A stretch of DNA of 47,627 nucleotides, filler included, from Jimgerdemannia flammicorona (taxonomy: Eukaryota), in assembly GCA_003990765.1 (NCBI GenBank). It is 2 parts of 2 records of this genome, joined end to end, with 100 filler letters (N's around TTAATTAATTAA, not from the genome) between each part and the next. Parts side by side here need not be neighbours in the genome. Positions count along the whole stretch, not along the records: positions 1 to 23,771 come from RBNJ01001068.1; 1 more part is not named here. One strand, 5' to 3'. Within the stretch, counting starts at the first letter, position 1. Each line of letters starts with the position of its first letter. The position numbers and the translations under genes were made by a program. Under the pieces are notes generated by a model. The model was not told where the DNA came from, did not search any database, and saw nothing but the letters and a program-made list of their open reading frames with translations. Shown here piece after piece: positions 1-46,085 of this stretch.

Positions 1-1440
1 TTTTTTTTTATTTTACGGACTCATGTCCCGTGGATTTTTATTCAAAGGGAACCTAGACTATATAAGCCAAAACCCTCCCCCACCACCCACCAAGCACTGC
101 CCCCCCCATTAACCTAGGCTAGCTATTGTCCAGCAGCTCAACCATACCAGACACAGCAGGGCTGATAAGCCTGCACCTCATTCTGCGCACTATGCTCTCC
201 CTACTACCAGGGGAAATCCAACCATATGCCGATGAACAAAAGCATATGCCTGAGAACCCAAATATATACAAGACCACACCCGAGCCAAATAGAATAGCCC
301 CTGCCATCCCAAAGAGAATGACAGGCAAATAAAAAACCCTCATCAAAGTGTAATACAGTAGGTAGGGCCTGGTTCTCTTAGTCAAAGTGAGTAAAGGACT
401 TATACATGAGGTGGGAGGAAACCCCCAATACCCCACTACTCAAGTCTGTGGGCCTCGATCACATTGCTGTGTCAGCTCCCGGTTCTAGTTGAGTATAGCC
501 AAGATGTCTGAAATGGGTAGCCTTGGCCCTCCTGACCCCCCCTGATGACTGGGGCCCAACCCTGCTGACCGCCAAAAGAAGCCGATAGTAACACCTACCA
601 CCTAACCATACTACACCAATCAAAAGGCCCCACCAAAGCAGCACCTGCCCTAGCCCAGATGACTGCCCCCAGCCTGGCACCCTACTGGTTTACCGTAATC
701 GCCCTTCTACCTATCTGTGATGGCCATCTCTCCTCCCATCCCAACAACACCTGACAAGCAGTCACCTACGCCAGAACCGCGCTCGCTGGGAAGCTCGCCA
801 AAGCCAGAGGGCCCCACCACAGGCACCGAGGACCTGCAGGTAACCTATACTGAGCACTTGATGCCCAAGGTTGGCCAACTCCCTATGTAGCCCGAGACAC
901 ACTGAGACAACTCCTTGTTGGCGATGGCAAAAGGAAGAAGGCACCGCACCAAAAGAGGTACACTCCAGACGCAGCTGAAGGCACCAGAATCTGCAAAAAA
1001 GTGGAGGAAGCACCTATCCGACACTGATAAAGGAGCAACTCATCACCATTACCCTCCTCCCACCATGCCCCTGCAGGCACAGCAAACCAACCCAAGGTAG
1101 AGGGGGTAATATTAGGGGAAAGGGGACTCAGAAGGTCGCCTACCAAACCTTGTGACTGGTAAGGTAGTGGAGAAAGAGGCTGAGGGACCAGGTCCTCTCC
1201 CAGTCCCACTGGATACTGATCCTCCTCCAAAGTCTTCCCCACTCTTCAATCCTCCAGAAGCCCCTATTCTCAGTCTATAACCTCTCTTTACCTTTTGCCA
1301 GCCAAAAGCCCCAGGTCTACCCGATCCAGTATGTATATCAGAACTCTTGCTTGATGATATTGTTATGGTATCTTTATTCTGAATTATGTCAAAAACTATT
1401 GCTTAAAGTTGATATAATATGAATTATATAGAAGAAAGGT
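1..1440 (-). mobile_element. Internally deleted or chimeric LINE derivative: family-A 5' end joined to a different poly(A)-tailed 3' segment
   Basis: Reverse complement of ~1210-1440 aligns with 12923-13150 (ACCTTTCT..AACTTTAAGCAAT..ATATCATCAAGCAAGAGTTCTGAT..GTAGACCTGGGGC; peptide TGSGRPGAFGWQ). 1-1200 is a Trp/Gly-rich stop-interrupted frame ending in AATAAA and an A-tail (T-run at 1-9). Confidence 0.65.
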
Positions 1441-1740
1441 GGCCATTCTTTGATATATAGCTCTAAGTTATACAATTATTATAACTGATGAGCTTACTTT
1501 GTAAATTCTATTTGAATAGAGAGATATGAGACTATATTAGAATCTTAACTGCTTATAACTGATAACTATCCTTATGCCTGACCACCCTTATGACTGATGA
1601 GACCAACTATCTCTATAAATACAACCAGTAGCATAATATATAAAACTATCTTAGTGGTATGATTTCATATTTAGCTATTACTAGATTTGAGTTTTATTTT
1701 TATTCTTATACTCATTGGTAATAATGAACTAGTGGAGATA

Positions 1741-1806
1741 TCTAATATATCCTCTGATATATCCTCTGATATATGCTCTAATATATGCTCTGATATATCA
1801 TCTAAT
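1741..1806. repeat. 12-bp tandem repeat (TCTGATATATCC-like, ~5.5 copies)
   Basis: tctaatatatcc tctgatatatcc tctgatatatgc tctaatatatgc tctgatatatca tctaat read directly. Confidence 0.8.
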
Positions 1807-2227
1807 GGTTTCAAGATTTCTCCTAAATATACTTCTTGATCTTTAGATATTTTGAATAGTATTTAATAATGACAGAGACTGAGAATATGAGTGAGAGGCT
1901 GAGAGCTAGAAAGTGACTAAGAAGTGGTGAGCTAAGTAGTAGCATATTGAGAAGTAAGCTAGGAGAGTAGTAAACTAGGGGGCAGATATTTAGAGATAGA
2001 GAGTTAGGGGTTATGAGCAGTATGGGAAACCCAAAACTATGAAGCCTAGAACAGGGGTCTGCAAGCCAATGGACAGCAAAATGGAGAGCAACAAGGTTGT
2101 GATATAAGATATAATAGCCAAAGATCAATTGTAGATAGAGAGTGAATAAATAAATATACATAGATGATAAACTGATACCTATCTGTAAATAACAAATACT
2201 TTGAAGAGTCAGCTATAGGCCCCAATT

Positions 2228-2345
2228 AAGTAAGATTTGCAATGATGTTTGAGTGAGATTTAAAGTAAGATTTGTAGTAAGGTTTAAGTGAGATTAGCAG
2301 AAAGATTAAAGCAAGATTTGTAAGTGATATTTGAGTGAGATTTGT
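2228..2345. repeat. Degenerate ~11-12-bp tandem repeat (AGTRAGATTT core)
   Basis: Recurrent aagtaagatttg / gagtgagattt units. Confidence 0.55.
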
Positions 2346-3064
2346 ATAAACCAGGCTTTGCAAGCCTTACACTTGTAACTGTATAAGCTCAGTCTAATAA
2401 GTTGATATAATATATATAAGCTAATATAATATGATACATATTAGCTATTAGCTGAGCAGAGCAAAGCATATACTTATACTTATACTTATGCTTACAATTT
2501 GGAGCTTTTCTCACTATATTTCATCTCTTGCATTCTACTCCTCTTGTATAACTCTCATATATTTCTCCACCTCACTCACTCGCATTTCTCAGATTGCAAA
2601 CAATATGCAATTTAGAAATAGTTTTCAAAAGAGATTTCAAAGTGATTCTAAAAGAGCTTCTGAAAGAGATTTTGAAGAGATTCCAAAAGAGATTCTGAAA
2701 GATATTATAGCTTTTGAACATTTAAGATATTGAAAGCTTACTTTTATCTCTAGTTCTTTTTGCCTTATTCTTTACTTCACCTCATCCTTTACTTTATCTT
2801 ACTTAAATCACTACTATATTGAGAACATATAGATATAACTGCCCAGTTAATAAGTATTTATCTGGTCCCACCCAAGCTTGATATACTTCAATTCACTATT
2901 CCAAAGCTTGGTACCTTAAAGATATCTAACTTACTGATACCCAGTTAGCTGTGCTTGCCAATACCTAAGTTGCTAAGCTCACTGATCTCCAGCTAGACCA
3001 CCAGCTCACTGCTGGTCCACAAGTTCAAGATCACTATCAGATTTCAATAATATAGCTTGAAAAA

Positions 3065-4015
3065 GTTAGTTTTTTTTTTTTTTTTTTTAAATCAATATCT
3101 GAATTTTTTTCCTAATAATATTCAAAATATACATATCCTCTAGCTTCTAAGCCTGGGCCAGAGTACAAATCTTTCTATAATTATCATTTTTGCCATCAAG
3201 TTTGCCCAAGTACTATCTGGAAGTATTGCCAAACCAATTTCTCAGATACCTCAAACTTTACAGAGAAAAGGTCTTACAAATCAAACATTAGGTATACTTT
3301 CACTATAGTTAATAAATGCATTAAGAAAGTACATGATGACCAATTGAGGTAAGAAGTCATGAAGATGATAGAAAACTATGTAAAAATTATAGAATATTCA
3401 TTATACCATACCAGCTTTAAGATAAATGCCAAAGTATGAAATAAGTGAGATTGTCTAGATAGAATTGTTATTATAGATAAATATGAAAAACAGCTGTCCA
3501 TATTTGAACAAGTATTAGTAAAAAATAACAAAATGCTTTATATATAACAAAGGATGGCAGACTTATGTATTTTATTAAGAGAGGTGGCAGTTGAGGAGAT
3601 AGAGAGGTGGAAGAGGTCAGTGTCAGTAGAGAGGTTGGTGCCAGTAGAGTAGTTGGTGGAGAGGTCAGTATGAGAGAGATTGGTGCAGGTGAGGTTAGTG
3701 TGAGAGAGTTCAGTATAAGTAAGGTTAGTGTGGGGGAGATTAGGATAAGTGAGATTGGAACAGGTAATATTAATATAAGGGAGATTGATAAGAGAGATCA
3801 GTATAGAGAAGATTAGTATGAGAGGTCAGTGCAAAAGAGATCAGTATAGAGGAATATAGAAAGGTTGGTACAGAGGAGATCAGTATAGAGAAATATAGAG
3901 AGATCAGCATAGTAGATGAAATGAAGGTTAGCATAGAGAAGATCAGTACAGAGAAGAATATAGAGGAGGAGAATATAGAGGAAAGCAGTTCAGAATATAT
4001 GGAGGAGGAGGATCA
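3065..4015 (+). pseudogene. Possible decayed intron-containing gene of unknown function with a low-complexity repeat tail
   Basis: GTTAGT donor at 3065 with T-tract and CTCTAG acceptor at 3143. Then a ~150-codon frame (YKSFYNYHFCHQVCPSTIWKYCQ...EVAVEEIERW) with only 4 stops, followed by 15-bp GAGAGRTCAGTATAG-like repeats (3590-4015). Confidence 0.3.
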
Positions 4016-4269
4016 GTTGGTTTATAGTAATGAAGAGTATAATATATTTATACTGATAAGTTCTTTATTTTTCTGATTTACTTCCTATTTATTTCCAATT
4101 TTAATTTGATTTCTGATTTCTTATTATATTTCTGTTTATTTATTCTAAATATATATCTTAGATATATATATATATATATATTTTTTAATACTTTGTAGCT
4201 TAAAGGTTGATTAAAGATAGGTTTGTATTAGGTTAAATATAGATCAGAGTCAGTTTATATATATTTCTT

Positions 4270-4445
4270 CGATTGGGTTAAAGATATATTACATATAATT
4301 TCAGGTTAGGTTAAAGATAGGTAATATATATTTTCAGGTCAGGTTAAAGATAGGTGATATATCATTCTAGATCAGATTAAAGATAGATAATATATATTTT
4401 CAGATCAGATTAAGGTCAGGTTAAATATATATAAATATCAGCTCA
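4270..4445. repeat. ~33-bp tandem repeat (TTTCAGGTYAGGTTAAAGATAGGTAATATATA, 4-5 copies)
   Basis: Units visible at ~4299, 4332, 4365 and 4398, with progressive G>A decay. Confidence 0.7.
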
Positions 4446-4463
4446 GGTTATGATACACTATAT

Positions 4464-4537
4464 AGGGGGCTGCATAGTGGGCTGGGATACTGTATTTATA
4501 TTTGATAGACTAGTACTAAATAGTGAAGTCTAAGAGA

Positions 4538-4610
<73 letters not shown>
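4464..4610 (+). mobile_element. Extremely 5'-truncated LINE (family A 3' tip plus 70-nt poly(A))
   Basis: GCTGCATAGTGGGCTGGGATACTGTATT..ATAGACT..TAAATAGTGAAGT..AAGAG matches the LINE 3' end at ~20688-20753 (GCTGAATAGTGGGCTGTGATACTGTATT..ATAGACT..TAAATAGTAAAGT..AAGAG). A-run 4541-4610; possible TSD ACTATAT (4457-4463 / 4610-4616). Confidence 0.75.
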
Positions 4611-4612
<2 letters not shown>

Positions 4613-5779
4613 ATATTCTAAAAAAAAAAGAAAAAATGCAAATTAGAATAAAATACAATATATAATATATTCAAAAACTAGAACTATATATAACTGAAAT
4701 TACTATTTCAAAATCCTATATTTAAGGAATTTTTGTAGATTGAAAAATATTCTGAAAAGTGCAAAATATCTACTTATAGATAAGTGATATTAATATATAC
4801 TTAATATTAGTATTTTGAGAGCCTGAAAAATACTGATTAGCTATTAAACTTTGTCTATACTTCTGCTTAATCTAATGCCATTACTATAGCAATTACTTTT
4901 ATTATATCTTTAGAATATATATTATTATTAATACTACTAGTACTGCCTATAGTACTAATTTATAGTACTTATTACTATATTTTTAAAAATATATTTGACA
5001 TCAAATTTGATATATTCACTGGATATTATTGATAGTATCTAGACTACTAACATTATTGATAGTGCTTATACTAAGCTTGGGTTTAAGTTTATCTATATTA
5101 CTCTTATTTATAATTTACCTCATCTGGACTTATTGGTTTCTTTCTGATCTTATCAGTTATATAGGTCTTTTCTATAACCTTTTTGCTAACCATATTACTG
5201 ATCTTGTTTGCTATATCTATACTTTTGACCTTAGATTCAAATTTATCTCTATTGATCTCATTACTAGTCTTATATATACTAACTTTGTTATAATTTCCTT
5301 TATCTCTTAGAAGGACCTCAGAATTGCCTTGATACTAGAGTAAACTTTATCTATTATTTGGGAAGACTTATAATTACCTTGAATATCTAAGTAGCCACCT
5401 TTGTTATAATTATCTTCTACAATTAGGAAGGACTTTTTTATTATTATTAGCAGGCTTCTTCAGTATATCTGGATTGGTAATAACTATATTCATTATTTTG
5501 AATTTATCTGGAATTGTTCTTTTGACTATACTTATAGCAGGAACTATATTTCTATTATAGAGAGTCATTGTAGAGATACTCATCTTAGTACTCTGACTTA
5601 TACCTATATTTATTAATATAGAAGATAAACTAGAGATATTCTAGCAACTAACTGATATCTACTAACTAGGCTATATTGCAACTTAGTTATTAGCAGAGTT
5701 TATAATCTTTATTATATAATAGTGGATTCATAAGAGACTGTATAGTTGAAATGATTTATTCAAAATATATAAGTTGTTT

Positions 5780-6755
5780 TTTTATATATCTAATAGTAGG
5801 AAAATAATAAATATCAATAATCAAAACTATATATCTGAAATTTCAATATATATTAAACTATACTAAAGCTAGATAACAAGTCTCTAACATACTAAATAGA
5901 ATAACAGATAAAGAAAAAAATCTCTAAAAGATATAGAAAAGTAGATAGAATCTAGTTCTCTCTAATAAGATAAGTAAAGAACTTATATATAAGATGAGAA
6001 AAAACTTTTAATATCTTATAACTCAAGTCTGTAGCCTTAATTATATAACTATATTAGCTTATCTCTAGTTAAATATAGTCTAAATATCCAATCTAAGTAG
6101 TCTTAGATCTATTAATAATTCTAAATAATTAAAAATCAACTCTATATATTACTAAGAGTAGCCAAGTATAATATCAACTATCTAAATCTAATACAAATCA
6201 GAAGGCCCATCAATATAGTATCTGTCTTAGTTTAGATGAATATTACTAATTTAATATATAATGATCTATCATAATTACTCATTTACTTATCTGTAATAGT
6301 CATCTCTACTTCCATCTCAATACTATCTAAAAAGTAGTTATCTGTATTAGAATTATACTCACAGAGAAGCTCATTAAAGTTTGAAAATCCTACTATTAAT
6401 ATCAAGAATCTGTAAGTAATCTGTATTAATAATTAATACCTAAAATTGACTGACTTTTTATCGAGTCTATAATATATCTAAACAATATCTTATTAGTTAA
6501 AATAAAAGAAAGAGATACTATACTAAAAACAAAAATACTTCAGATATAGTGAGAGATATCAGAAACTATAATAGGGTAATGAAAGCATTAATTTAATACT
6601 AATAAAGGAGCAACTCATCACTATTATCTCCTTTTTACTATCTTATAATAGTTATAGCAATCTAATCTGGGGTAGAGAGAGTATAAGTTATAAAAAGAGA
6701 ACTTAGAAGGTAATTTATCAAAATCTTGTAACTGATATAGTAGTAGAGAAAGAAT
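5780..6755 (-). mobile_element. Heavily mutated homolog of the element at ~190-1180
   Basis: Colinear over ~1 kb, e.g. ATAAAGGAGCAACTCATCAC at 1028 and 6602, ACTCAAGTCTGT at 438 and 6021. Differences are overwhelmingly C>T and G>A. Confidence 0.8.
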
Positions 6756-7463
6756 CTATACTTTAAAAGTTCTTTATTAGTTATTTATAATTTTTATATT
6801 ATTTTATTAAAGTTATAAAAATTATATATTTCTTGTATTATTGATGAAAATAATATAATTTATCTCAATAGAATGAAGTATAAAGTTACATACTTATATA
6901 TTGAGTTACTATTTCAATTAATTGTTTTTTAATTTTTTTTTATATATATTTTTTAATTAATATAAAATTCTAAAAATATAAAATAATTAGGTAATTATAT
7001 AGAGATATACAAGAGATAGAATTTTCTCCAAACTAGATATAATAACACGGAAAAATTGCACTAGAGTCAGTGAGGTCAGGACCAGAAGACAGCTATATGG
7101 GAAATTATACTATTGGGGTTTTAAATAGATTCTAGTTATATTTACCATTAACAGCTGTAATATAGTACTGAAATTCCTTGAATACAATGATACTAGGGGA
7201 ATGCATGATATTTGTGGAGGAATTCATAAGGAGAACTTTTATAGAATAAAGGTAGATTGGAGATTATTTATGGACGTTGAGCTAAGAAGGTAGAGTATGA
7301 CAAATTAGCTGTTGCAGTGATAATTTTGGTCACCCATTTCTGTGACTGCCCACGACGGTTAATCCTTGTTATATATATATATACTTTTATTTGTTTTTAA
7401 CGTCGTACCTTGTTCTTTGTTGTTCCTTCACAAACTGTCTCGGACGCCTAGCTGAATCATTTA

Positions 7464-7545
7464 GTAAGGTCCTGATCTCTTGTCATTTCCAGCTTCACAC
7501 TTTGACCTTGGTTATTCTTTCGCTCATTCTCTGTCCGTTTTTTAG
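7464..7545 (+). other. Putative 5'-UTR intron of the CRN gene
   Basis: GTAAGG donor at 7464, pyrimidine-rich interior, TTTTTAG acceptor ending at 7545, 8 nt before the ATG (AAAATGG context). Confidence 0.5.
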
Positions 7546-7553
7546 AATTCAAA

Positions 7554-7900
7554 ATGGGCGACACTGTTACCCTCACTTGTTACACTCCCAGCACGCGGTC
7601 CATCTTTGACGTCATCATTGAGAAGGCGCACTCCGTTGCAAATCTCAAGCACCATCTATGGGAAAGGAAGGCATCGACCTTCCCCGACACTGACCCGGAG
7701 GATCTCCAAATCTATCGTGTGAATATTTCTTGCGATTCTAGCAATGCCACCTTCGACGCTCTTCAGCGCGAATACAGACCAGACATCGAGTTGCTTGGAG
7801 GTGAGGAATTACATCCAACGCAGAAAATATTTGAGGCGTTTTTCAATGTCCCCCAAGAAGGAAGACATATTCATGTGATCGTGGTGGCTCCTGGTACGTC

Positions 7901-7978
<78 letters not shown>

Positions 7979-10082
7979 CGTTACTTTATTAGATTGCGAT
8001 TAGATTTGCTTTTTATTTCTACCTTCGCGTGTCCTATCTTCGGGAACTCGATTAGCACTCTTATCTGTTTCTCTCTGTAACTGTGCTTTCGCTGCTTTGA
8101 TTCTCCTTAACTATCAACACATCAAGGTACGTGCATACTCTAATTAGGGTTTGGGAAGAAAAGAACTGCAAAGAGTGGAGAGGATATACAAAAGTTCATA
8201 GAACTAGGGTTTCCAAAGACTTTCGTATTCCGTGTCTATGTATATATCTATTTTTACTGAAGCTTTATATTTTGTTTCTTATATTTTATTTCACATTCTA
8301 CATGGATTCTACCCTATTCGTTCATTAGTGCTGTGGTACCGGTGGGAGAACCAAAAGGAACCTGGGACATTATCAACAAAATTGTTGACTAAATGCGTCA
8401 ATTTGGGAGGCCTTGCCGTTGAACTTTCTCACAGTAACCCGTACGCCCAAAACCTTTATCCATTTGAGATCTCCTTTGTTGAAAGTGATGATCTCCGCCG
8501 CACCAAAATCCTTCGCAGGGGCATTCCCCTTCGTGAGCTGAAAACATTTGACGAATCTCCTCTCATCATTCGTTTTCCATTCTCGGGGCGTTCCGGTGAG
8601 TCAAGTTATTTCTCTCTCTCTGATAGTGCCAGTAACCTAAACAACGTGGTTTTGCTTTTTATACGAATTTGTAATTAAGCCATTGCTTATTCGACTTCAT
8701 CGTACCTTATAGTACATGTGAATCTCAAATTTCTTAACGTTCCCGTTGCGATAATTCTTGGCCACGATACCGGGTCGTGGCATATGCTTTTGGATGGCAC
8801 CAAGAAGAAATATCCGAAGTTGGAAGAGGCCGAGAATGAAATCTACTATGTTGACGCAAAGAAAAATATTATCGAAAATGATTTTACTTTCAACAACTAT
8901 TTGAAGAATGCTCCCTTGAACGATCAAGATGAAATTTGTCTCACTTTTTTTGTTCGAATCAAAGGTGCCTTTTTTTTTTTTTTTTTTTCGAATTTGTAAA
9001 AATGTTGCTGTACTGTTATGGAATTTTTACACTCCTCTTACATACTATTTCTTAACGCTCTTCGGATAGGCAAGAGAGCTTACGGCGAGTGGGACGCAAA
9101 AGACGTGATCCGGGAGATCTTGCACCAACAATATGCGAACATCACCTTCTTGCCTGAATTCGACATAGGTAAAGTTTTCACGTCACGCTCTTCCCGTTTT
9201 TATGAATCAGCATTGTTACTGCGTCACTGCATTTTTATTAATTGATCGGGATCTTTTCTCGTAGAGGACGCCTTGGAGAACGAAGTCGAGATCACCGACG
9301 ACGATAAGCGGACTTTCGTCACTGCCCTCAACGAAATTACAAAAGCATTCCATTATTTGGTAACCAGCGACGAAGCTACAGCGCGGAATTACATAAACCC
9401 TTTTATGATCAAGGCAGTTGCTATTGTCCAACGTAAACATCCTTCGGCCCGTCTCGCAGTAGAAGTGGACTTCGATGGAAGTCGCGGCTTTGGACGTCTA
9501 GACTACGTGATATTTCTGCTCGCATTTGCGGTACTTGTGACGGAGGCCAAAATGACCGAAGTTAATAAGGGAATAACACAAAATCTTTTACAACTTCATT
9601 CTGCGGCAGAGGTATGCAACGTTGTTGCTTTTAGACAGGTTCTACTTTATTTCTCCATATTCAAGTCTCATTAAGCCTTTCCAATTTAATTACATATTTC
9701 CCAGAATATTCGCAAGCGCAAGCGTAAAGAGTCACATCACCCCACTGATTATCTCGCCAATGTGTATGGGATAGTCACGACTGGATTGGAGTGGCGATTC
9801 ATTCGCTGGTCGGACACACTGGAATCCCCGAAGGTGGTTATTTCCAAACCTTACAGGTGTACATTTAACGGAGAAGGCATGGAGGACGCCGAGAAGGTGC
9901 TCTCTATCATAATCCGCATAATTCATTCGCAAGCCATTTTCGTGGAATCGCAAATCGGAAGCAGCGAAGGAATATATGAAGTGGCAATGAAAAAAGATAA
10001 TGTCCTAAGACCATCTCAACACCAACGCTCTGTCAAGGACGACGAGGAAATCGTAGAACCTGAACAAAGTCTTTTTGAGTGA
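7554..10082 (+). CDS. CRN: Crinkler (CRN) family effector-like protein with C-terminal PD-(D/E)xK restriction-endonuclease-like domain, ~560 aa, 6 exons
   Basis: Exons 7554-7893, 8329-8595, 8713-8964, 9070-9168, 9265-9611, 9705-10082. All GT-AG and phase-compatible; total 1683 nt = 560 aa + stop. The N-terminus has CRN hallmarks (F-x-V-x-I..SVANLK..LQIYRVNI as the LxLFLAK/LWKV-equivalent; HIHVIVVAP as HVLVxxP). The C-terminus has GFGRLDY..VTEAK..GITQNLLQ, RKRKRK and YGIVTTGLEWRF. Confidence 0.9.
7903..7978. repeat. 76-nt poly(T) tract in CRN intron 1
   Basis: Uninterrupted T-run beginning 9 nt into the intron; it explains the spurious poly-Phe in the ORF track. Confidence 0.95.
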
Positions 10083-11089
10083 TACAGCATGGACGGAGGA
10101 TTGTTTTGTGAAAATGTTTGAAGTTGTCTCCTCTTCCTCTCGTTTTGCTTGCGAATAGTTTTGTAATTGTATTTCAAATTGTCATGCTATGTTTTGTCAA
10201 TGGAAGAAAGTCATCTCAGAATGTTGTGTTTTAGTTTGAATTATGACATCTCTCTCAATAACACGCTCTTCCGGAGTAGTCGAATATTGATACTGAGGTG
10301 GTTTACAAATGCAGAAAGATGCATAATCGGCAATGTTCCTTGGAAAATAATTTTTTTCGTTAGTAATTGGCTTTCGTTTTGATGTTTGTAGGGAAGAATT
10401 TTTTACAATAACTCTATTTACATATATATCTTAAGAGCATCAACTTGTTGTTCACCTATTTCTATTTTAATAATATGAAAATAATCTGGTACTCCATATT
10501 TAAAATATTAAAATAACTATTTATAAGTATCTGTATTTAACTAATTCTATCTAAAATCTCAATCATTCAACTTCTGAATAAAGCCAAAGTAGATAATCTG
10601 CAACTATATTTATAATATAATATTCTTATAAATGAGGTAAATTTATTTACTATAATTATAACTGGGGTGATAAAAAATAAAGATATATAATATTATTATA
10701 ACTGCTATATACATATATAAATATAAAATAATAAGTATCATCAATAAGAAGTTAATCTAGGAGATAGTACTAATAATAATGAGAAAACCTTCTATAACTT
10801 ATAAAGATAAAACAGAATTAAGAATAAATAAGGTCTAAAAATAAGTCAATAAGTCTAAAGTGTGATTAAAAAAGATTTAACAGTTATGGTAATTATTATA
10901 GAAAGTATAAATATATAACTATTATAATGATGAAAGAGTAGTAAAATTTATTATTAATAAGAGAATAATAAAGCCAGTATAGATAGTAATATAAATAGTA
11001 CTAAAACTAGTAAAAATAGGATTCTATTCTTTACCTAAGTAATATATATTAGTGATAATATTTTTTTTTAATAAATGAAAAATTATACT

Positions 11090-12922: not shown

Positions 12923-15900
12923 ACCTTTCTCCTATAATTCACATTATACCAACTTTAAGCAATGGTTTTCAATACAACTCAGAGAAAAGATACTATAAAA
13001 ATATCATCAAGCAAGAGTTCTGATGGGTGTACTGGGTCAGGTAGACCTGGGGCATTTGGCTGGCAGAATGTGGGAAGAGGTTATGGCCTGGAAATGGGGG
13101 CCTTTGGAGGATCAAAGGATGGAGAATACTCTGATAGAGGATAAGTATCAGATGAGAAGGCCTGGCCCTTTTAGTTTTGTAGATAAGGTAAAGGTGAGTA
13201 GATGGCCAGCTGGAACTAGAGCTAGTGCTGCTGAGGGGAAGGGCAAGATGAGCATCAGAAGGGAGAGTGGTGCTTAGGTGGAAGATGCAAGCATAGGTAC
13301 TGAAGGGGCTAGGGTTGGGGGTGTTACTGTTGATGAGAGTGTAATGGAGAATTAGGAAAAAAAAAAGAAATGTAATAGCTGATGGTAAGATGGCACAGGG
13401 GTTTCTGATGTGGAAGGGGAATCTGGTGGATGGTATGATGGGACTGGCAGTAGCACTATTGCTCAAGAAGTCAATTTCGAAGTTTGCAGCCATCTTGTAC
13501 TTCTGGGGCTTGGCAGTGACAGCAAGGATGGTCCTGGGGCTTATCTTGAAGCAGATGGCTGGAGCTGCCTCAGTGAAGTTTCTGAAGGGTCTGGAGGAGG
13601 TTGAGGTGGGATTTGAGGAGGTGGGCTCACTGGAAGAGGCTCTGAAGACTAGAGTGGTAGTTGGAGAAGTAGTGGTCCCCATGGTGTGCTGTCTGAGGTG
13701 AGACCCCAGGGTAGTGCAGTTGCTGGTGAAGGGGGTGCCTACAGTGATGAAGAAAGAGACTAGGAGGAGGGTGGAGGAGGTGATGGTGGAGTATAGTAAT
13801 ATGGTGGATGTCAGCTTTCAGGTATGAGAGGGGACCTTCATCAGGATGGGTAATATGGATGTCCAAATTTGACTGGCTGGAAGAGAGGCCATGGGAAAGA
13901 CGAGTGACTGGCCCTCATTATTGATGTAGTGAGCTTTTATCTATAAGGTATCGAGAGTGAGAGGGAGTGAAGAGGAGGGGGAGGACTTGTTAGAGGCCCT
14001 AAAGAAGTTGAGTAGTGCTATTGAGTGAAGGGCAAAGGCCTGAAAATTGTATGAGAAGTTGAGACATCTGGAGATTATTGATGGGAAGTATATTTGCATA
14101 GATAAGAGGCAGTGGGAGAGGGCTCAAGAGTGCAGAAGGCAGAGGGAGTTGCTGGTGATATAGAAGAAGGGGCAAAGATAAAGGCTGAGGGCTCTGAGAA
14201 GTCTGAAGGAGTGGAGGCAAGTGTCTGGACTAGTAATAGAGATGGCAATAGGGAGGAGGACCTGAAAGGGGCTGAGAAGGTGACTCTCAAGGACCCATTT
14301 ACTGATGGTACATTTGAGGTCTGGAATCTGATCATAGATGATACTCTCCCTCTGATCAGGTGGAGTCTGACTGCGAGGGATTAGGTAGCAGAGGATGAGC
14401 TGATATGGGGTGCTCAGTGGGTATACTTTGGGATTTCTGATGTAGCAAAAGGAGGACAGGTAGTGGCCATTGGCAAGGATGAGCTGGTGGATGTCCCTGA
14501 GGAGAGATGGGATGAGACTACCAGTATAGGGGTAGATATCACAATGCTGAATACAGAACAGCCAGGGACACCTGGAGGAAAGAAGGTGGGAAATCTGCTA
14601 TAGATGAACAAGGTGATGGAAAGCCTCATAGCTGAGGAGTTGGGGGAAGTAGATCTGTGAGTGATGAGTGGGGAGCATTGGGCAGAGATTCTACATAGAG
14701 AGAGAGTGGTTGGGGTACTGAAGGCAGAGATCCTTGTAATTTTCCTGGAGAAGGAGGGATATGAGGTTGATAAGGTGAGAGAGGCAGAGCTGGCAGTTGT
14801 TACTGGTGAGCAGGCTGCCTATTATTGGGCTGAGTATTATAATTTGCAACTCTGGCAGAAGGCATGTCTGAAGAATTTTAAGAACTTTAAGGAAAAGGAG
14901 GATGGGACAATGGCTGAACTTCAGGAAGGGTTGGAGGCACAGATGACTGAAGAGAAGGGACTGGCTGCAGAACATAACTTGGATATAGCACAAGAGGAGT
15001 TAAATGTGGATTTATAAAGGATGAAATTGATAATCAATATTATTTCCAATGAACAGTATAACTAATATTTTATCTCTGAATGTGAATGGATTGCAGGGTT
15101 CTGGGTGGTGTAAGAACATTTTTACTTGGCTTAAAAGATTGGAGGGTGATCTCTTTTTACTACAGAATGTCCAGTGTGAGAATGAAGAAGAGCAGATAGA
15201 GTGGACTAGAGAATAGAGAGAAGCTACTGCTTGGATTGGCAAATTAGCAATTCTGATAAGAAAGAGTAGAGGAGATTTGGGTAGAATCAGGAGCTGGAGT
15301 GACTGCTTGGTATGAGGAGAGTGATATAGACCTGAGTGGGAATTAGTAAAGGTTGGCTCCTGCTACTGCCCTGTGGTTAGGGGTGAGTGGATTGAGTAGA
15401 TTAGAGATCTTTTAGAGGAGGGCATTCTCTTAGAGGAAGGTATCAATATTCTGAGAGGTGACTTTAATATGGTGTGGGATCTACAGTTAGATAGAACTGA
15501 TAGAGGAAGGAGTGTGGGCAGGAGGAGTGGTGGTCTGAATAAATGGGAGGAGGTGGAGAACCTTAGCTCCTTAGGAGATATAGATAGAACATGTTGGGGT
15601 AACAGGAGAGTCTATATGCACTGGGTAAATGGGTTAGATATGAGGATTGACTAGATTCTGACAGCTGAATATTGGGGTATTGATGTTTGGAGGACTCTAG
15701 AGGTGGAGTAGTGTCTATGGTCTGATTACTGGGGGCTGTTGGGATAGGGACAGTTTGGGGGGAGTGGAGATGGACTCAGACATTGGTATCTTAACTCCTC
15801 TCTGCTGGCTGAGAAGGGGTTGTAGGACCCATGGGTGGAGGAAATCTAAGTGAAGATCACTCACTAGATATATAAGGATTTGTCTGTAGGTGCCTACTGG

Positions 15901-18900
15901 ATAAGGCTACAATGGTGTATTGGAGAGGAGCTGGTAGGGAGACTGAGAGACAGCAAAGGAAAAAAGTGAGGTGTACTTCTAATAGGCTGATTAGATTGTA
16001 GATGGAATGGGCTAATTTGCTTTTTTCTGAAGAGGTGGAGTATTGGAGGTTAGAGAGAGTAAAATTGGAGGTGGGGAAGTTGTAACAGATACTGAGAGAG
16101 GAGGAGGAGATTCATATAAAAGGAATGGCTGCCAGACTACAGTAGCAGGGGCTTGAGAAGAGAGAGCAGCCTACTAGGTACTTATCTAGGCTTCTCTAAG
16201 CTAAAAGAGTACAACATCAATAGGATGAGGTCTTTGATGCTGAGGGGGAAATGGTGCATAGTATGCAACAGATCTTAGAGATACTAGAGATAGAGAGGTC
16301 TGTAGAGTGAGGAGGAAGTGAATGTAGATAAAGGAGTGATTGGTGATATGCTGGAGGAGTGGGATCTACTACAAGTAAAGAGACTTAGTGACCTAATTGT
16401 ATCAGTCCAAGAGGAGGAGATCCAGAAAGTCCTTACAGCAACCAAGCTTGGAAGAGTACCGAGAGAAGATGGGTTAGCTTCATTAGGTCACAGCTGGAAT
16501 ATGGCCTTTCCTTTCTATAAGCATTCTGTCTGACTATTACTATGGGCTTCAGATATTGAAGCATCCTAAACAGGTCTTTGATAATACTGTCACTTGGGCA
16601 GTCAGGTTCTCTAGCCATTCCTTGCTTGACAGTTTAATCCTTGGTCTCCCTTCCTTCCTTCATCATACATTAGACCTCTGCTGTATGTTGTAAGCTGATC
16701 TGGATTAGTGTAGTAAGTCTGGCAACAACCCTATCAGCCCCTTTAACAAGCACTTTATCACACATCCCCCAGGTTCTAACATTTACAAGTTCTGACATTA
16801 GACCTCTTGGCTTGACTTTCTCAACTGGTACTAGGACCTTTGTCTCCAGGTCTGTAAGACTTGCTTGCTCTGCTTCTTTCTTCAGTCATTCCTCTGGAAC
16901 CAGCTGCTACAGGAATCAATCTCCTCCTCCTAGGCTCTTATTCAGTACATCACTTCTAAGAGCTGTTTATGGTCTTGGGGTACTGACTGCATTCTCTTCT
17001 TCTCCCCCAAGCTTGTACATTCTACTCTCACCTGGTGTTATGGCTACTTTGGCCAGCCCTACTTCTGCTCCTGTAGAGATAAGTTTCATCATAGATATTT
17101 TCTCAGGTGCAGTCTTCTCAACAGTTTCTATTCCACCTTCTGAGGCAATTCCAATTATAATGAATAGCTCAATTGGTTTACCAGTGATGAATGACAGGAA
17201 GAACTTTGTACATACTCTCTTCACACTCTTCATGAGATAGTCTACCACACTATCAACACTATGTGTAATTCTGGTAGCTATCTCACAGTTAGGTTCTACC
17301 TAACTGAGATTATAAAGATGCTTAATTGATTGAGTAATTACATATTTTCTTTATTTTTTTCTTTTCCCTCATTTGTCTTAGTTGGTTTCCTTATAGTTAA
17401 GAGGACATTAGTTATATATCTCATATTAGCTATTTGGTATTTAGGTGTTGATATTGTTCCTATAATAGGAACTGGGCATTTGTATATTTTACTTTAGCCT
17501 CTCTCTTCTTTGCTTTCTATATTTATTATCTTTATAGTTATAACAAAATAGGTTTATCTAGTCGATCTCTAGGGTGGTTACCTCTCTGATCTTTATTTGT
17601 TCTTCTTAGCTAGTTGTTTACTTTGCTGACCTCTTTTTTGCTTTTTGTGTCTCAGCAATACTAAGCCATCCTTGTCTTGCAACAAGCTGGACAGCTTTTC
17701 CTTGACTACTTTCCTTTTCTCATCTTAGGAGTCTTTGCTATTTATTGCTCTGATGTATCTTATCTTCTTTACAATGAATAAATCCTTACTTGAAGCCTAA
17801 CTCTAATCTTCTGACTTGACTTTCTCAACTGGTACTAGGACCTTTGTCCCCAGATCTGTGAGACTTGCTTGCTCTTGTCTTTCTTCAGTTGTTCCTCCAG
17901 GACTAGCTACTTTTGGAATGGGCCTCCTCCTCCCAGGCTCACATTCAGTATATCACTCCTAAAGACTATTTATAGTCTAATAGAGATGACGACATCCTCT
18001 TCTTCCCAGCTTATGCATTCTGCTATTATAGCTACTTTGACCAACTCTACTCCTGCTCTTGTTGAGATAAGTTTCATTGTAGTTATCTCCTCAGGTGCAG
18101 TCTTCTCAATAGTTTATATTCTACCTTCTGAGGTATTTTTGTTCTTGATGACTAGCTTGATTGTTTATCAGTAATAAATGATAGGAGGAACTTCACACCT
18201 ACTCCCTTCATACTCTCAATGAGATAGTCTACTATGCTATTGATGCCATGTATAATTCTGGTAGCCATTTTGCAGTTGTGTTCTACCTGACCAAGATCAC
18301 AAAGATGCTTGAGTGATTAAGTGATCACACATTTTCTTTATTTTTTTCTTCTCACTCATTTATCTCAATTGGTTTCTTTGTTGATGAGAATACATTGGGA
18401 TATATATCTCATGTTAGTTATTTGGTATTTGGGTTTCAATATTATTCCTATAGTTGATACTGAGCATTTGTATATTATATCTTAGCTTCTCTTTTCTTGC
18501 TTTTTGTATTTATTATTCTTATAGCTATAATAAAATGGTTTATCCAGCCCATCCCTAGAATGGTCACCTCTCTGGTCTTTATTTTGTTCTTTTTAGCTAG
18601 TTGTCTACTTCACTGCTCTCTTTTTGCTTTTTGCATCCTAGCCTTACTAAGTCATTATTATCTCATGATAGTCTGGATGCTTTTCCTTTTCTCATCTTAT
18701 TAGTCTTTGCTGTTTATTGCTTCAATATATCTATCTTATCTATAAATGAATTCTTACTTAAAGCCTAGCCCTAACCCTCATCAGAGATGGTACAGCTTAG
18801 GTTCATAATATTATTGAAAGGACTTAAGCCTATAGGCTGGATGGGAAATTGGTCTTCCTAGATTAAGAGTAGGCCTATAACTGTGTCTGGCAGGTTTGGT

Positions 18901-20764
18901 CAGTAAGAGTACTGGATAGGATTAGAGTCCTCTAGCAGTTCTGAGTTTTAATGCTCAGTCTACTAGATGGGAGTAGTGCAGTACTCATATATAAGTAGCA
19001 TTCTCTCTAGATAGAGATATTCACTAGAAGAACTTATAGTTCTCTATTTTATATACTCTATCCTTAGGGTATTGATGGATAGAATAGAGTACAAGATAGT
19101 TGCACTCTTTGTATTTGAAATTATTAGGAAGATTGGAGTCTTTATAAAAGATATATAGGTAGGCCTTAGGTCAATTGCTGATATAGAAACTCTTCAGAAG
19201 ACAGTAGAGTAGTATGAGGTATACTCTGGAGTGAAACTCAATTGGTATAAGTGTGAAATGATGGTGTTAGGCAATAGTATGGTGGGAGGAGATATTATTG
19301 GAATAATTGTCCTTATTAGAGATACTATATGATCCTTAGACATCTTTCTCTCTGACTATAGATCTGTTCAGTTTAGGATTTGATAGAAGTAGAGTGTGAC
19401 TATTTGGGGTGAGACTCTGTAGAGCTGGAGAGGCCCTAATATATCTTTAGTATGCTATATTTCAATCTTGAATATTTACTGGCTTCTAATACTATAGCAT
19501 TTGGCATATTACTATTACTTGAGCTTTCTAATCTAGGTAGTAAAGAGACTTTTGAAGCTAGCCAAAGACTGAATCTGGGCTGGGAGAAGAAGTCAGATTA
19601 GTTGAAAGATTCTGTCATTATCTATAGAAAGAGGAGATCTTAGGCTAGTTGACTTCTCAAAGAGACTTTATTATCTAAGAGAATGGTAGCTAAAGAGAGC
19701 TATAGAACTGAGAGGGAGTAGCTGGGTACCTCTGATGCAAAAGGTCTAGAAGTGAGATTTTCTACAAGAGACTTATCTAGAGATCTATATTTCTTGGCTG
19801 GGCTTAGAAGTAGTGAGTGAATATAGTATAAGAGTTTCTGGTGGGAGATAGTTGATAGAGTGCACTATATTAGTCTTTGCTGACAAGGAGCTGAGAGAGA
19901 AATACCATGGAGTCTAGTAATATAGAGATGGAACTATATATTACTGAGAATACTCTACTGATTGACTTCAATATTGATAATAGAATAGAGTTCCTGAGAG
20001 GGTTAGGACAGGATTCATGGCCTAGTAGCTGGTAGATAGTAGATATTGGAGAGGAGTGAGAATGAAATAGAATCTGGACATGGAGTATGAGATATAGTAT
20101 CAAATATGTCTAAGTTCTAAATAGTATAAAGGTGCTTACTAAGAAGGAATATCATACTCAACTTCTACTTAGGCCATCTTATAGAGGGGAGACAATTTGA
20201 ATGTAAAGAGTGCTATAATATAGGTTAAAATGGATTTTGCACAGATGCCAGAATATTGACTTAGAGAGTGTAAGGTATTTAGAGACTTTTGATTAATAGT
20301 TAAGACTTAACTAGAACTGGTGAGGAGAGGAATTGATGAGCAAGATAGATGGAGAGACCTGAGAGATAAATTGGTAGGTGGAAATAAAATTAAGTAGCTT
20401 ACAGTTAGATGGGCTTTAGCTATATAGATGGAACTAGCTAGACACTGATTATTTGTTTTTGAGGAGAGAAGGCAATTGAGTTTGAGAGAAAAACTGATAA
20501 GATAAGAAGAATTGATGGTAGATGTGTTTATATTAGTGGCTGAGATGGATCTACAGTGAAGTCATCAGTAATACTTAGTTGAGAAGATCTGTGGGTAGAG
20601 TTGAGAGAGGATTATAGTAGCAGATAGTAAGGAGGTCTTCAAGTATGAGAGTTTAGAGAGAGCCCATCTAGGGGGATCAGATAAAAGGCTGAATAGTGGG
20701 CTGTGATACTGTATTAATTGAATAGACTGATAATAAATAGTAAAGTTCAAGAGAAAAAAAAAAA
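12923..20764 (+). mobile_element. L1/Tx1-like LINE, family A copy 1: both ends present, decayed, interrupted at 16481-18777
   Basis: ORF1 remnants 12962-15017 are homologous to 32.9-34.95 kb. ORF2 from ATG 15049 has SLNVNGL, GDFN, RID, WSDY, EDGL, RT remnants and a C-terminal Cys motif. Poly(A) at 20754-20764. Confidence 0.9.
16481..18777 (-). mobile_element. Non-LINE insertion containing a ~1-kb tandem duplication; probable decayed gag-like fragment
   Basis: LINE homology stops after EDGL (16480) and resumes at IRDG (~18779). Units 16811-17810 and 17815-18777 both start CTTGACTTTCTCAACTGGTACTAGGACCTTTGTC. Minus-strand TGT TAT AAC TAT AAA GAT AAT AAA TAT could be a decayed C-x2-C-x4-H knuckle. 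Confidence 0.55.
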
Positions 20765-23282: not shown

Positions 23283-23759
23283 TGTAACGTAGCAGACGCT
23301 TACTCTTGAAAGTACGTCGGATTTCTGTATCTTGAAAACTTGACTGTTCTGACTCTCGCAGAGTCTCTTGAAGTGGCAGGGGAAGGGTGGGTGAGTTCGA
23401 AGTGTATCTGCCCGCAGGCTTACTAGTTCCTTTGCTATCTCTTTGCTTTGAACTATTTCGATCTGAGGTTTATTCACTCAAAGATACTGGGTTATTTATA
23501 CAAGTTTGCTAGCTATGAGAGGGTGGCTAAGTAATAAATGAGTCATTTGGACTTTGTCGAAACATTTGGACAATGTCTAAATGCTATACTAAATCGGGGT
23601 ATTTGATTTGGATAATGTCTAAAATTTAGACAATGTCTAAGAATTTAGACAATGTCAAAATCGAGGACTGCTAACTATGATGCTATACTACTTTGGGAAT
23701 GGGTGCGATCAAGTGTCTATTCCCTATTTCCTTCTTCCAAATCTGGCTGTACCGTCACA
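23283..23759 (-). mobile_element. Relatively young 477-bp LTR; probably the 3' LTR of a minus-strand element running off the contig end
   Basis: TGTAACG...CGTCACA termini (TG..CA, imperfect inverted repeat). Minus-strand TATAAATA then AATAAA. Purine run AGGAGGAAG immediately upstream on the minus strand (PPT-like). ~18-bp TTRGACAATGTCTAA repeats at 23545-23660. CpGs retained. Confidence 0.7.
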
Positions 23760-23771
23760 ACTTCCTCCTGA

Positions 23772-23871
23772 NNNNNNNNNNNNNNNNNNNNNNNNNNNNN
23801 NNNNNNNNNNNNNNNTTAATTAATTAANNNNNNNNNNNNNNNNNNNNNNNNNNNNNNNNNNNNNNNNNNNN
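23772..23871. other. Artificial contig-joining linker / assembly gap
   Basis: 44 N + TTAATTAATTAA (stops in all six frames) + 44 N = exactly 100 bp. Confidence 0.97.
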
Positions 23872-24905: not shown

Positions 24906-25022
24906 TTATAGAAATTTAAGTATTATAAATAAATAAACCTCAGATTGAAAAAAAAACAAAAAATATCCATAGATAACATACTCTTGAAAGATCCAATGAG
25001 ATAATGAAATAGACTATCACAA

Positions 25023-25809
25023 TGTAATAACTCTTAATTCTATCCCTCTCTGATCCTTTAGATACTTAGGAAAATAAGATATTACTTAGAGACTTAGTAC
25101 ACAATATATACCAAGAAGCCTTCAGTTTGAGGAAGCACTTACTTGAAAGTAGTTGTAGTAGTAGTATCTTATCTTTCAAAGGTCTTTCTGATTTGTCCTA
25201 TCTTTCAAGGATCTTATTCTTTGTTGTGTACAGACTGAATTCACCTTAGAATTCAGGTTCAATGGGTTTACTTAAGTTTTTAGAGATTTATATACCAGTC
25301 TCAGTTCTGGTAAAAGTTAGCTAGGCTTCTGAAGTTTAGTCAGAAATACCAGAATCACTTAGATATCATTACTAAGACTCAGGGAAATGTGTATGTGTGT
25401 GTGGGAGACTTGATTCTTATATCAAGGACTGAACTAAAACTGCTTTATTTTAGGTGGAAACTAGGGGGTATTTATATAAGTTGGTCCATAATTTCTGTCT
25501 AAGTATGAGTGACTAATTTGGTAACTGTAATAAGGTTTGTGATTGTGACCTTTGTCAGGTGGTTTGTGGCAAAAAATCTTTATGATTAGGACCTCAATTA
25601 CTAGACAATGATCAGCTGCTATGGTAATAGTTACTGCAGTATCAATTGTCAGAGATAAGCTGGATATCATTTTTTACATCATTTTGCATCATTCATTCAT
25701 TGTTCATAATATTGTATATTATGCTTGATCATATGATATCATTGTTTGCCAGATCACATTATTGCTCATATCATTACATCTTATCTATTTGTTCATTCAT
25801 TCTATTACA
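25023..25809 (-). mobile_element. 3' LTR of an older copy of the Gypsy family at 43553
   Basis: Reverse complement is colinear with 43553-44328 end to end; TGTAATA..TATTACA termini; no matching flanking TSD; PPT adjoins. Confidence 0.92.
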
Positions 25810-30300: not shown

Positions 30301-30560
30301 TCTGTGACTAGAGAGTTGATAGTATATAAAGATTGATAAAGAGAGAAATTGAATGAGTCTATAGATCTAGAGAGCAGAATGAGAAAGTAGATTCCCTCTA
30401 AGTTTTGGGTGGTCTGATAGAGATTACTGAGATGGAATATTATATTGAATTTCTGGTCAGGGTACTTAATTATAGATGGAATATTTGTATATAAGAAGTG
30501 TATAAGAGTCAGGTAAGAGAAAGGAGAAGTGCAGACTCCAGAATATTGATTAAGTTCTTA
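27310..30560 (+). mobile_element. Heavily decayed LINE (family A-like): ORF1 C-terminus through ORF2 zinc finger, 3' end missing
   Basis: ELEAKK (ORF1 end), LPWNF*KK, WRLIILLNIDRK, LQGDSLLS, WKVGAFIDN (FADD), QTPEY; colinear with 34850-38180. Confidence 0.85.
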
Positions 30561-30564
30561 GTAA

Positions 30565-32845: not shown

Positions 32846-32885
32846 TCCTTTTTCCAGTAACATTCAGGTTACACAACCTTTTGGC

Positions 32886-34955: not shown

Positions 34956-34986
34956 AGAACTTATTTGAAACTATATAATCTTCCTT

Positions 34987-37900: not shown

Positions 37901-38186
37901 TACTCCCCTTATTGACTTTGATATTGGTGATGGAGTGGAGTGCCAAAGAGGACTAGGCCAGGATCTTGGGCCCAATACCTGGCAACTAGCAGGTATCGGT
38001 GAGGAGTGGGACTGGAGTAGCATTTGGGCATGGAGTGATAGAGTGCGATACTGGATACCACCAAAGTATTGTGTGGTATGATGGCAGATGCTAAGGAGGA
38101 ATGTTATGCTCAACTTCCAATCAGGGCACCTTGTTGAAGGAGGGAGCTTTGACTGTGAGGAGTGTCACAATGTCAGACAGAAAGGG
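34987..38186 (+). pseudogene. LINE ORF2 (APE endonuclease, reverse transcriptase, partial CCHC finger), disrupted
   Basis: SLNINGL, LLQDVR, GGDFN, RIDWI, WSDY; APGEDGL, NWRSIMLLDMDRK, DQEKAYD, QGDPLSPLLY, AFADD, YLGI; in-frame stops and a frameshift near 36400. Confidence 0.93.
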
Positions 38187-38382
38187 AGTTTTATACACCT
38201 TGCCAAAGCAGGGACTCCTTTTGCTCGAACCATTCAGAGCAAGCTAAGCAACACAGACATCTTTTCATGACAAGCAACGCATTTTCAAGTTTTTCCGTCA
38301 TCTATTCTGGTGTACAAGGTGCGGCTGGAGTCTAGCTACAGCATACAACAAGTCTCGTCTATTTTGGTAGAGTTTTCGTCAG

Positions 38383-40224: not shown

Positions 40225-40236
40225 ACATTTACATTC

Positions 40237-43200: not shown

Positions 43201-43552
43201 GAGTGGATCTGGACAGGTCCGCTTGAGAGGTGGCCAGTTAGTTGGCAGAAGGCTGGGTTTGGAGAAGAATGGGAGTGGGGTCGGGTTTGGGGCTGGGGGA
43301 CCTTGCTACTCAAGATTGCCCCACCCAAGTTCTGGGTGGTATAGTGGTGATTTCTGCAGAGGAACGTCATGCTGGGGTACAGGACAGGGTGGATGGTAGA
43401 GGAAGGTGTAAGGGAATGTGAGTGGTGTTGTGAGCTGGATGGGGGAGTAGTGCAGACTCCGGAGCAAGTTCTGGCTGCCTGTCCAGGGGTTGAAGGATTT
43501 TGGCAGATGTTGGAAGGGTATTGGGGGGAGAAGAGTGAGCGGGCAGGGGGCC
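40237..43552 (+). pseudogene. LINE ORF2 (APE, RT, zinc finger), disrupted
   Basis: SLNVNGL, FLQDVR, GGDFN, RID, WSDH; SPGEDGL, NWRPIMLLNVDRK, DQEKAYNRV, PQGDPLSPLLY, AFVDD, RYLGI, CEWC..QTPEQVLAAC. Confidence 0.93.
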
Positions 43553-44328: not shown

Positions 44329-44331
44329 ACT

Positions 44332-44343
44332 TGGTAGCAGTGG
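44332..44343 (+). promoter_or_regulatory. Primer-binding site, probably initiator tRNA-Met
   Basis: TGGTAGCAGTGG 3 nt after the LTR; TGGTAGC is complementary to the GCUACCA 3' end typical of fungal/animal tRNAiMet. Confidence 0.75.
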
Positions 44344-46028: not shown

Positions 46029-46085
46029 AGAAATGATCAAAGAAATGACCAAAGATATGATCAAAGATATGATCAAAGGAACCAG
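46029..46085 (+). repeat. 12-bp coding tandem repeat (RNDQ RNDQ RYDQ RYDQ RNQ)
   Basis: AGAWATGAYCAA units upstream of the zinc knuckle. Confidence 0.85.

Follow-up and report, generated by a model that had tools for sequence, protein, structure and literature searches.

The window analysed here is the whole of a 47,627-nucleotide stretch of Jimgerdemannia flammicorona DNA (assembly GCA_003990765.1), composed of two joined parts, of which the first (positions 1 to 23,771) comes from record RBNJ01001068.1. It is a patchwork of GC-rich blocks (45-55%) and AT-rich blocks (21-33%) that holds retroelement copies of different ages and an island with a Crinkler gene, and it displays a strong, context-dependent C-to-T decay that is confined to the transposons and spares the neighbouring gene. 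Ordinary self-BLAST finds few repeats in the window. When the sequence was collapsed to purines and pyrimidines before BLAST, 37 long matches appeared and each AT-rich block was paired to a GC-rich element: 12937-16424 with 32862-36377, 18777-20230 with 36717-38182, 27338-30524 with 34854-38188, 30792-32688 with 41654-43550, 25013-25769 with 44338-43586, and the adjacent units 16801-17811 and 17805-18779 with each other.

The GC-rich members of these pairs are young elements. A long interspersed nuclear element (LINE) of family 1 lies on the plus strand at 32839-38200 (GC 0.52; observed/expected (o/e) ratios of 0.06-0.10 for CpG and 1.2-1.3 for CpA) and served as the near-ancestral reference; Pfam recognizes pieces of a LINE-type endonuclease and a reverse transcriptase from 35269 to 37163, in broken frames and with the endonuclease match under the Pfam cut-off. 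It is followed on the same strand by a young family 2 LINE at 38300-43550 (GC 0.52; CpG o/e 0.21-0.33) and by a young Ty3/Gypsy element at 43586-47627 (CpG o/e 0.25, CpA 1.26), which begins with a 5' long terminal repeat (LTR) at 43586-44338 and runs past the window end. A repeat family that we designate P1 is represented by a little-mutated, GC-rich copy at 190-1180 (unstranded; GC 0.53, CpG o/e 0.29, CpA 1.19), adjoined at 1204-1437 by sequence that resembles, in reverse complement, the 5' ends of LINEs (12924-13157 and 32839-33024).

The decayed partners comprise a heavily mutated P1 relic at 5780-6755 (unstranded; GC 0.23), an old LINE relic at 27338-30524 (plus strand, GC 0.31), an old family 2 LINE relic at 30792-32688 (plus strand, GC 0.29), a moderately mutated LINE copy at 12937-16472 (plus strand, GC 0.45; CpG o/e 0.02; mutational load 0.21-0.36 per 300 columns) and a relic of a LINE reverse-transcriptase region at 18777-20230 (plus strand, GC 0.36; load 0.37-0.41). 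The last may represent the 3' portion of the 12937-16472 copy. Both pieces align in the same order with a single young LINE (36424 and 36717 there), and between them lies a 2.3-kb insert (16473-18776) that holds the two tandem units of about 1 kb (16801-18779, plus strand; 79.6% identical, 164 transitions and 34 transversions) and looks like a nested insertion giving a relative age order. A Gypsy LTR family copy at 25013-25769 (minus strand) is 84% identical to 43586-44338 and is the more mutated of the two. The first-pass annotation had compared these as the two Gypsy LTRs; they do belong to the same family but, being oppositely oriented, do not flank a single element.

The substitutions that separate old from young copies are strongly directional. 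Because a five-LINE MAFFT alignment inflated transversions, pairwise transition-tolerant alignments were used in its place. The local alignment of 150-1300 with 5701-6900 spans 985 columns, has 30 gap columns and is 61.5% identical; transitions number 303, compared to 76 transversions, and C>T (165) and G>A (119) greatly outnumber T>C (5) and A>G (14), which amounts to 284 forward and 19 reverse changes. About 55% of C/G positions are changed in 5780-6755, compared to about 4% of A/T positions, and the same pair collapsed to purines and pyrimidines (226-1178 versus 5811-6754) is 90.6% identical over 955 columns. C>T and G>A are equal per available site on both strands. The reverse polarity, with the old copies ancestral and a young lineage gaining C and G, was rejected. 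At the C sites of the young LINE, two relics share 122 T's where 107.8 are expected and are discordant at 244, which is near independence and thus indicates that each relic was mutated separately and that the young lineage did not gain C. The relics also carry 10-27 in-frame stops each (25/211, 10/282 and 27/261 codons), mostly derived from TGG, CAG, CAA and CGA; 12 of the 25 stops in 27338-30524 come from TGG, and the relic 30792-32688 is the one with 27 in 261. Two sequencing runs contain 0.58 and 0.40 of the words of 7300-10300, and no RNA run is listed as containing them. At an 80% similarity level, the two runs placed no more than 48 and 60 short contigs within 27628-47627, too sparse to be read per copy; from these contigs, run X1 shows C>T 69 and G>A 62 versus T>C 31 and A>G 27, and run X2 shows C>T 16 and G>A 13 versus T>C 21 and A>G 23.

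Sequence contexts were tallied on a pairwise pseudo-ancestor in which C was taken over T and G over A. In the relic 5780-6755, the mutated fraction is 0.78 for CpG (31/40), 0.73 for CpA (88/121), 0.61 for CpC (102/166) and 0.21 for CpT (27/126), with the strands alike. All other mutated copies follow the same order: in CpG, CpA, CpC, CpT sequence, the fractions are 0.61, 0.59, 0.43 and 0.27 for 27338-30524, 0.68, 0.65, 0.47 and 0.32 for 30792-32688, 0.57, 0.26, 0.20 and 0.07 for the LTR copy 25013-25769, and 0.50, 0.24-0.25, 0.19-0.22 and 0.08-0.09 for each of the tandem units. Pooling the four heavy copies by 3' base yields 93/140 for G (0.66), 451/758 for A (0.59), 495/1100 for C (0.45) and 190/772 for T (0.25), a highly significant effect (chi2 220, p 2e-47). 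The effect of the 5' base is small (fractions 0.36-0.49, chi2 21, 5' T lowest at 0.36), and the second downstream base adds little, with CTA, CTC, CTG and CTT all at 0.23-0.29.

The intermediate value for CpC arises because a CC partner that turns to T lowers mutation of the 5' C: the 5' C of a CC is mutated in 405 of 706 cases (0.57) when the 3' C survives and in 172 of 605 (0.28) when the 3' C is now T. This result defines the target as C followed by anything but T. The sparing of CpT is about three-fold and not absolute, with rates for CpG:CpA:CpC:CpT of about 3.7:3.1:3.1:1, and non-CpG sites account for most of the changes. The first-pass annotation, which judged contexts by eye, had reported C>T and G>A changes on both strands with few indels, extending far beyond CpG, and had described CpG, CpA and CpC as erased and CpT as spared; counting upholds the direction, the reach beyond CpG and the difference between CpT and the other contexts, but shows that erasure and sparing are relative.

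We considered that CpT sparing could be a by-product of the pseudo-ancestor, and this was rejected by a control in which context-free mutations were simulated and passed through the same aligner and counter. The simulated fractions are 0.485 for CpA, 0.485 for CpC and 0.477 for CpT, and the CC test is flat (0.482 and 0.489), so the context bias is not an artefact of the method. A forward model that applies the 3.7:3.1:3.1:1 rates to the young LINE produces o/e values of 0.07 for CpG, 0.69 for CpA, 0.96 for CpC, 1.68 for CpT and 1.05 for TpA, close to the 0.01, 0.69, 0.99, 1.75 and 1.14 of the relics compared with it. Context-free decay of the young LINE gives CpA 0.86-0.91 and CpT 1.3 and does not reproduce the relic composition.

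Across the relics, the dinucleotide o/e values are 0.01-0.08 for CpG, 0.60-0.69 for CpA and 1.75-1.78 for CpT, and the richness in TA, CTAG and AGAG that had been noted by eye is borne out by o/e values of 4.52 for AGAG, 2.36 for CTAG and 1.6 for TATA. The relics also score on the indices used for repeat-induced point mutation (RIP), with TpA/ApT of 1.15-1.21 and a composite index of +0.18 to +0.52; the composite is negative in the young copies and in the gene. Young elements have CpG o/e values of 0.17-0.29 and CpA values of 1.19-1.29, in agreement with the earlier observation of mainly CpG loss in younger copies: CpG is lost first, and the young copies have lost only CpG.

The gene island at 7001-10100 (plus strand) provides the unaffected control. 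It contains an open reading frame (ORF) at 7551-7898 with a Crinkler N-terminal domain (Pfam match 7506-8000, E 3.9e-14) and a set of downstream ORFs at 8841-10079. For the ORF at 9246-9671, the database yields one relative, a J. flammicorona protein that, as a whole, is identical to the exons in the window at 289 of 315 residues; the single relative of the Crinkler exon is a different J. flammicorona protein (88% identity). The window differs from both records and would thus stem from a paralogous locus, another strain or a close relative. These matches agree with the early-diverging fungal host that had been suspected from the Crinkler gene, J. flammicorona being a member of the Endogonales (Endogonaceae) in the Mucoromycota. 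The island is the sole part of the window with normal CpG, 138 observed versus 125 expected, compared to 234 versus 1569.5 in the rest. CpG o/e is 1.27 in exons and 1.05 in introns, and the introns have a GC content of 0.39, CpA 0.94 and CpT 0.95. The C>T process thus hits transposon DNA and ends within about 1 kb of the gene, and the normal CpG of this one island together with its unaffected introns indicates that a uniform genome-wide mutation bias does not explain the decay.

The Crinkler N-terminal ORF ends in HVIVVAP and runs directly into a perfect T(76) tract at 7903-7978, and a perfect A(70) run of opposite sense lies at 4541-4610, just downstream of tandem arrays (3607-4441) with 30-39-bp and 33/66-bp units in AT-rich, CpG-free DNA. 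The 315-residue J. flammicorona protein related to the downstream ORFs has no Crinkler domain and corresponds to the window only from 8841 onward; the two parts may therefore be separate genes or one broken gene. Elsewhere in the window, 13 CpG are clustered at 23288-23753 amid CpG-free DNA, directly before two N runs of 44 bases each (23772-23815 and 23828-23871); this cluster may be a second small unmethylated island or reflect an assembly join.

Further observations concern the young elements. The Gypsy element encodes a gag with zinc knuckle, a dUTPase and an aspartic protease (Pfam, 45690-47525), with the dUTPase (PF00692, 45690-46784, E 7.4e-32) situated between gag and protease; a transposon-borne enzyme that excludes uracil may be noteworthy in a genome with heavy C>T decay. 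A protein search with the Gypsy ORF returned two close relatives, with 94% and 93% identity, in JGI and ENA records. The LTR segment 43636-44302 has by far the highest summed contig depth of the window in the two sequencing runs (74 and 372, with values elsewhere mostly below 10), and the LTR family is either very abundant or transcribed. The LINE sense strands (33000-43500 and 13000-16000) are strongly G-rich and C-poor, with a GC skew of +0.33 to +0.52 that persists in decayed copies; in the reverse-transcriptase region, G makes up 33-38% and C 14-16%. A tRNA scan of the window found none. Metagenome scans with a LINE ORF2 piece and a relative of the Gypsy gag-dUTPase gave 66 and 48 pattern matches, none of which was confirmed.

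The timing of the mutations was examined through strand clustering and through comparison with transversions. Runs of C>T and G>A are not fewer than under the null in five of five copies (z +0.07 to +2.18), so the changes are not grouped by strand, and the P1 pair has an even load over its length (0.45-0.68 per 100 columns). Eight pairs were compared, of which three are clean in being free of confounding divergence between LINE master lineages. The clean pairs have transition/transversion ratios (ts/tv) of 4.0-5.2, and LINE pairs have ratios of 2.1-2.7. For K(CpA)/tv, the clean pairs yield 17.1, 16.0 and 13.1 although tv spans 0.026 to 0.077, and K(CpT)/tv is 2.7-5.1 across all eight; such near-steady ratios are the pattern expected of steady accumulation. 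A rise of transversions in proportion to load had been named in the first-pass annotation as an observation that would speak against a RIP-like process, and it is seen in part, namely in the three clean pairs. The eight pairs in the window do not settle the choice between a burst and a clock.

On balance, we lean towards the explanation that the transposons in this host are methylated at CG, CA and CC by enzymes of the DIM-2 and DNMT1 classes and that the methylated cytosines deaminate gradually. In the proposed mechanism, transposon DNA would be kept cytosine-methylated and genes would not. Methylation would fall on CG and also on CA and CC, hardly on CT; a methyltransferase of the DIM-2 class is known to have this preference and would probably act together with a DNMT1-class enzyme. 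Over long periods, deamination would turn the methylated cytosines of both strands into thymine, one site at a time; CpG would go first, CpA and CpC would follow at roughly three times the CpT rate, and a CpC turned into CpT would be protected. The outcome would be permanent inactivation, with TGG, CAG, CAA and CGA codons turned into stops and elements of 52% GC reduced to relics of 21-30% GC rich in TA, CTAG and AGAG.

This proposal draws on published work. In Zymoseptoria tritici, Dim2-dependent methylation of transposons reaches 43-61% at CG, 10-22% at CA, 3-8% at CC and <0.01% at CT (PMC8016269). The rank CG>CA>CC with CT near exempt is the rank of mutation here, and both systems are confined to transposons and spare genes. 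The match is to the enzyme of one species, and it means that the spectrum, called unusual in the first-pass annotation, had already been published as a 5-methylcytosine (5mC) preference. As described in the same paper, Dim2 raises C>T mutation in repeats during mitosis; no meiosis is needed, and accumulation can therefore be gradual. According to Navarro-Mendoza et al. (PMC9963178), Endogonales and Glomeromycota have DIM-2-like homologues, and RID-1 is confined to Pezizomycotina.

Several observations weigh against this explanation. Z. tritici is an ascomycete in which, in mutation accumulation, >98% of Dim2-dependent C>T changes fall at CA and not at CG (PMC8016269), whereas CG, CA and CC are all hit here; what matches is therefore the Dim2 methylation map and not its mutation map. 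DIM-2 preferences differ between species, the Neurospora enzyme being described in a review as preferring CpT (PMC13297926), and early-diverging fungi are described as having near-undetectable 5mC in general; both points argue against simply extending the Z. tritici picture to this host. The unmethylated control consists of one 3.1-kb island. Over the eight pairs, the Spearman correlation of tv with K(CpA) is 0.60 (p 0.12), and values of K(CpA)/tv lie between 4.0 and 17.1. Finally, 12937-16472 and 18777-20230 carry different loads (0.21-0.36 and 0.37-0.41) at the same tv (about 0.09-0.10), although they may be one copy split by the 2.3-kb insert.

The most serious competitor is a true RIP-like defence, in which duplicates recognized by homology are actively mutated from C to T, premeiotically or vegetatively, by a DNMT-like enzyme of DIM-2 or RID type that targets C not before T. 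We regard this as doubtful, although several findings speak for it. The bias in 5780-6755 is extreme and the relics pass the usual RIP indices; dependence on the 3' neighbour is typical of DNMT-type enzymes; and copies at a comparable transversion distance differ in load, with an increase towards the LINE 3' region, generally the part of a LINE that is most numerous in a genome. In Neurospora, RIP can be driven by DIM-2 (bioRxiv 10.1101/115501), Dim2 drives mitotic C>T in Z. tritici (PMC8016269), and a RID-type gene is stated for the arbuscular mycorrhizal clade in a paper that has the sister Mucoromycota losing RID (PMC8298701), a statement in conflict with the restriction of RID-1 to Pezizomycotina, which itself tells against RIP here. 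An RIP-like burst sits poorly with the lack of strand-coordinated runs, with a load that scales with tv in the clean pairs, with loss of CpG, not CpA, as the first event, and with the persistence of GC-rich multi-copy elements side by side. Fresh RIP products have a ts/tv much higher than the 4.0-5.2 seen here. J. flammicorona has 37,472 repeat matches of 95-100% identity at <1 kb and 274 at <5 kb (PMC12543289, Table S3), which efficient RIP would not be expected to leave. A k-mer screen in the same study files the species as 'no_rip' (23/0/0; PMC12543289), a label that is weak evidence. Of the two possibilities raised in the first-pass annotation, a repeat-directed mutator or non-CG methylation plus deamination, the latter fits best, and the burst-like process is less favoured.

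Two further explanations are disfavoured. It is improbable that nothing beyond CpG methylation is targeted and that a genome-wide AT-biased pressure with an ordinary neighbour effect erodes unconstrained GC-rich inserts. In keeping with such a pressure, flanks without the relic signature are AT-rich too (6800-7500, GC 0.28; 10001-11000, GC 0.26 and CpG o/e 0.75), CpT sites mutate as well (0.21-0.32) at the steady K(CpT)/tv given above, and transversions build up alongside. The gene introns, however, retain their GC and their CpG and CpA, the CpT/CpA ratio is 1.0-1.2 in AT-rich flanks and 1.9-3.4 in relics, context-free decay fails to give the relic composition, and CpA C>T is 13-17 times the per-site transversion divergence in clean pairs; the J. 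flammicorona assembly, at 42.8% GC, lies far above the relics (PMC12543289, Table S1). Less probable still is editing of retroelement cDNA or transcribed DNA by an AID/APOBEC-like single-strand deaminase, such that copies arrive mutated. All affected sequences seen are retroelements (LINEs and LTR elements), which speaks for it. Yet the strand symmetry per available site, the absence of strand clustering in all five copies and a specificity that resides in the 3' base (chi2 220, compared to 21 for the 5' base) are not those of AID/APOBEC enzymes, which feature 5'-neighbour specificity and strand-coordinated clusters. The two tandem units and the two LTR copies each bear their own changes, and mutations are independent between separate relics.

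Gradual, methylation-linked deamination therefore remains the explanation that we prefer, and the process shares features with known systems but also differs from them. Like RIP in Neurospora crassa (RID; DIM-2/DIM-5/HP1), the process produces C>T and G>A changes in repeats, AT-rich relics with a TpA excess, and stops from TGG and CAG. Classical RIP is CpA-preferring (PMC12543289), premeiotic, homology-triggered and almost purely transitional, whereas here CpG is hit at least as often as CpA, CpA and CpC are about equal at the level of rates, no dinucleotide dominates, CpG is lost first and ts/tv is 4-5. The TpCpG hypermutation of Pucciniomycotina (PMC3318451) is likewise a transposon C>T process outside Ascomycota that was recognized from context counts in aligned copies; its target is TCG, and here the 5' base is minor and most changes are non-CpG. 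The CpG-only decay associated with DNMT1/DNMT5 in Basidiomycota (PMC13297926, PMC7862722) shares a transposon-restricted CpG depletion that is already present in the youngest copies, but here CpA and CpC also mutate about three times faster than CpT.

The chemistry and the likely enzyme class are thus familiar. New, as far as the searched literature shows, are the lineage, a mutation spectrum that covers CG, CA and CC and exempts CT, and the failure of a kingdom-wide screen to pick it up; the search returned neither a paper on this signature nor a methylome for Endogonales. According to PMC11105155, RIP is described in Dikarya alone, Zoophthora providing a compositional hint, and a screen published in 2025 that covered 1,239 genomes detected repeat-directed k-mer signatures in Ascomycota alone (PMC12543289). 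Table S14 of that screen counts, for J. flammicorona, 23 k-mers that are enriched in non-coding DNA, with zero for repeats, and TATA is 4.0-fold enriched in the non-coding DNA of this species. Composition screens on annotated repeats miss decay of this kind, in that the annotated copies are the young, GC-rich ones and the relics are counted as plain non-coding DNA.

RIP-type mutation has been held to be a Dikarya trait, and a member of the Endogonales here carries a strong C>T signature that depends on context and is confined to transposons. The Endogonales, plant symbionts of long standing, have genomes of about 231-240 Mb and a reported repeat content of 77%. Decay of this type explains the two-part GC make-up of the window (52% versus 21-30%) and is captured by four rate parameters (3.7:3.1:3.1:1) that are testable genome-wide. 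It is conceivable, if unlikely, that Endogonales have an active DNMT-driven repeat mutator of the DIM-2 class with the rule C not followed by T, which would be a RIP-like genome defence outside Dikarya missed by the 2025 k-mer screen; in that case, mutagenic repeat defence and a CT-avoiding DIM-2 preference would both predate the split of Mucoromycota and Dikarya. If methylation is instead the cause, as we infer, substantial 5mC at CA and CC but not at CT would be predicted in a lineage that is said to have little 5mC, and this would point to an ancient origin of CT avoidance in DIM-2.

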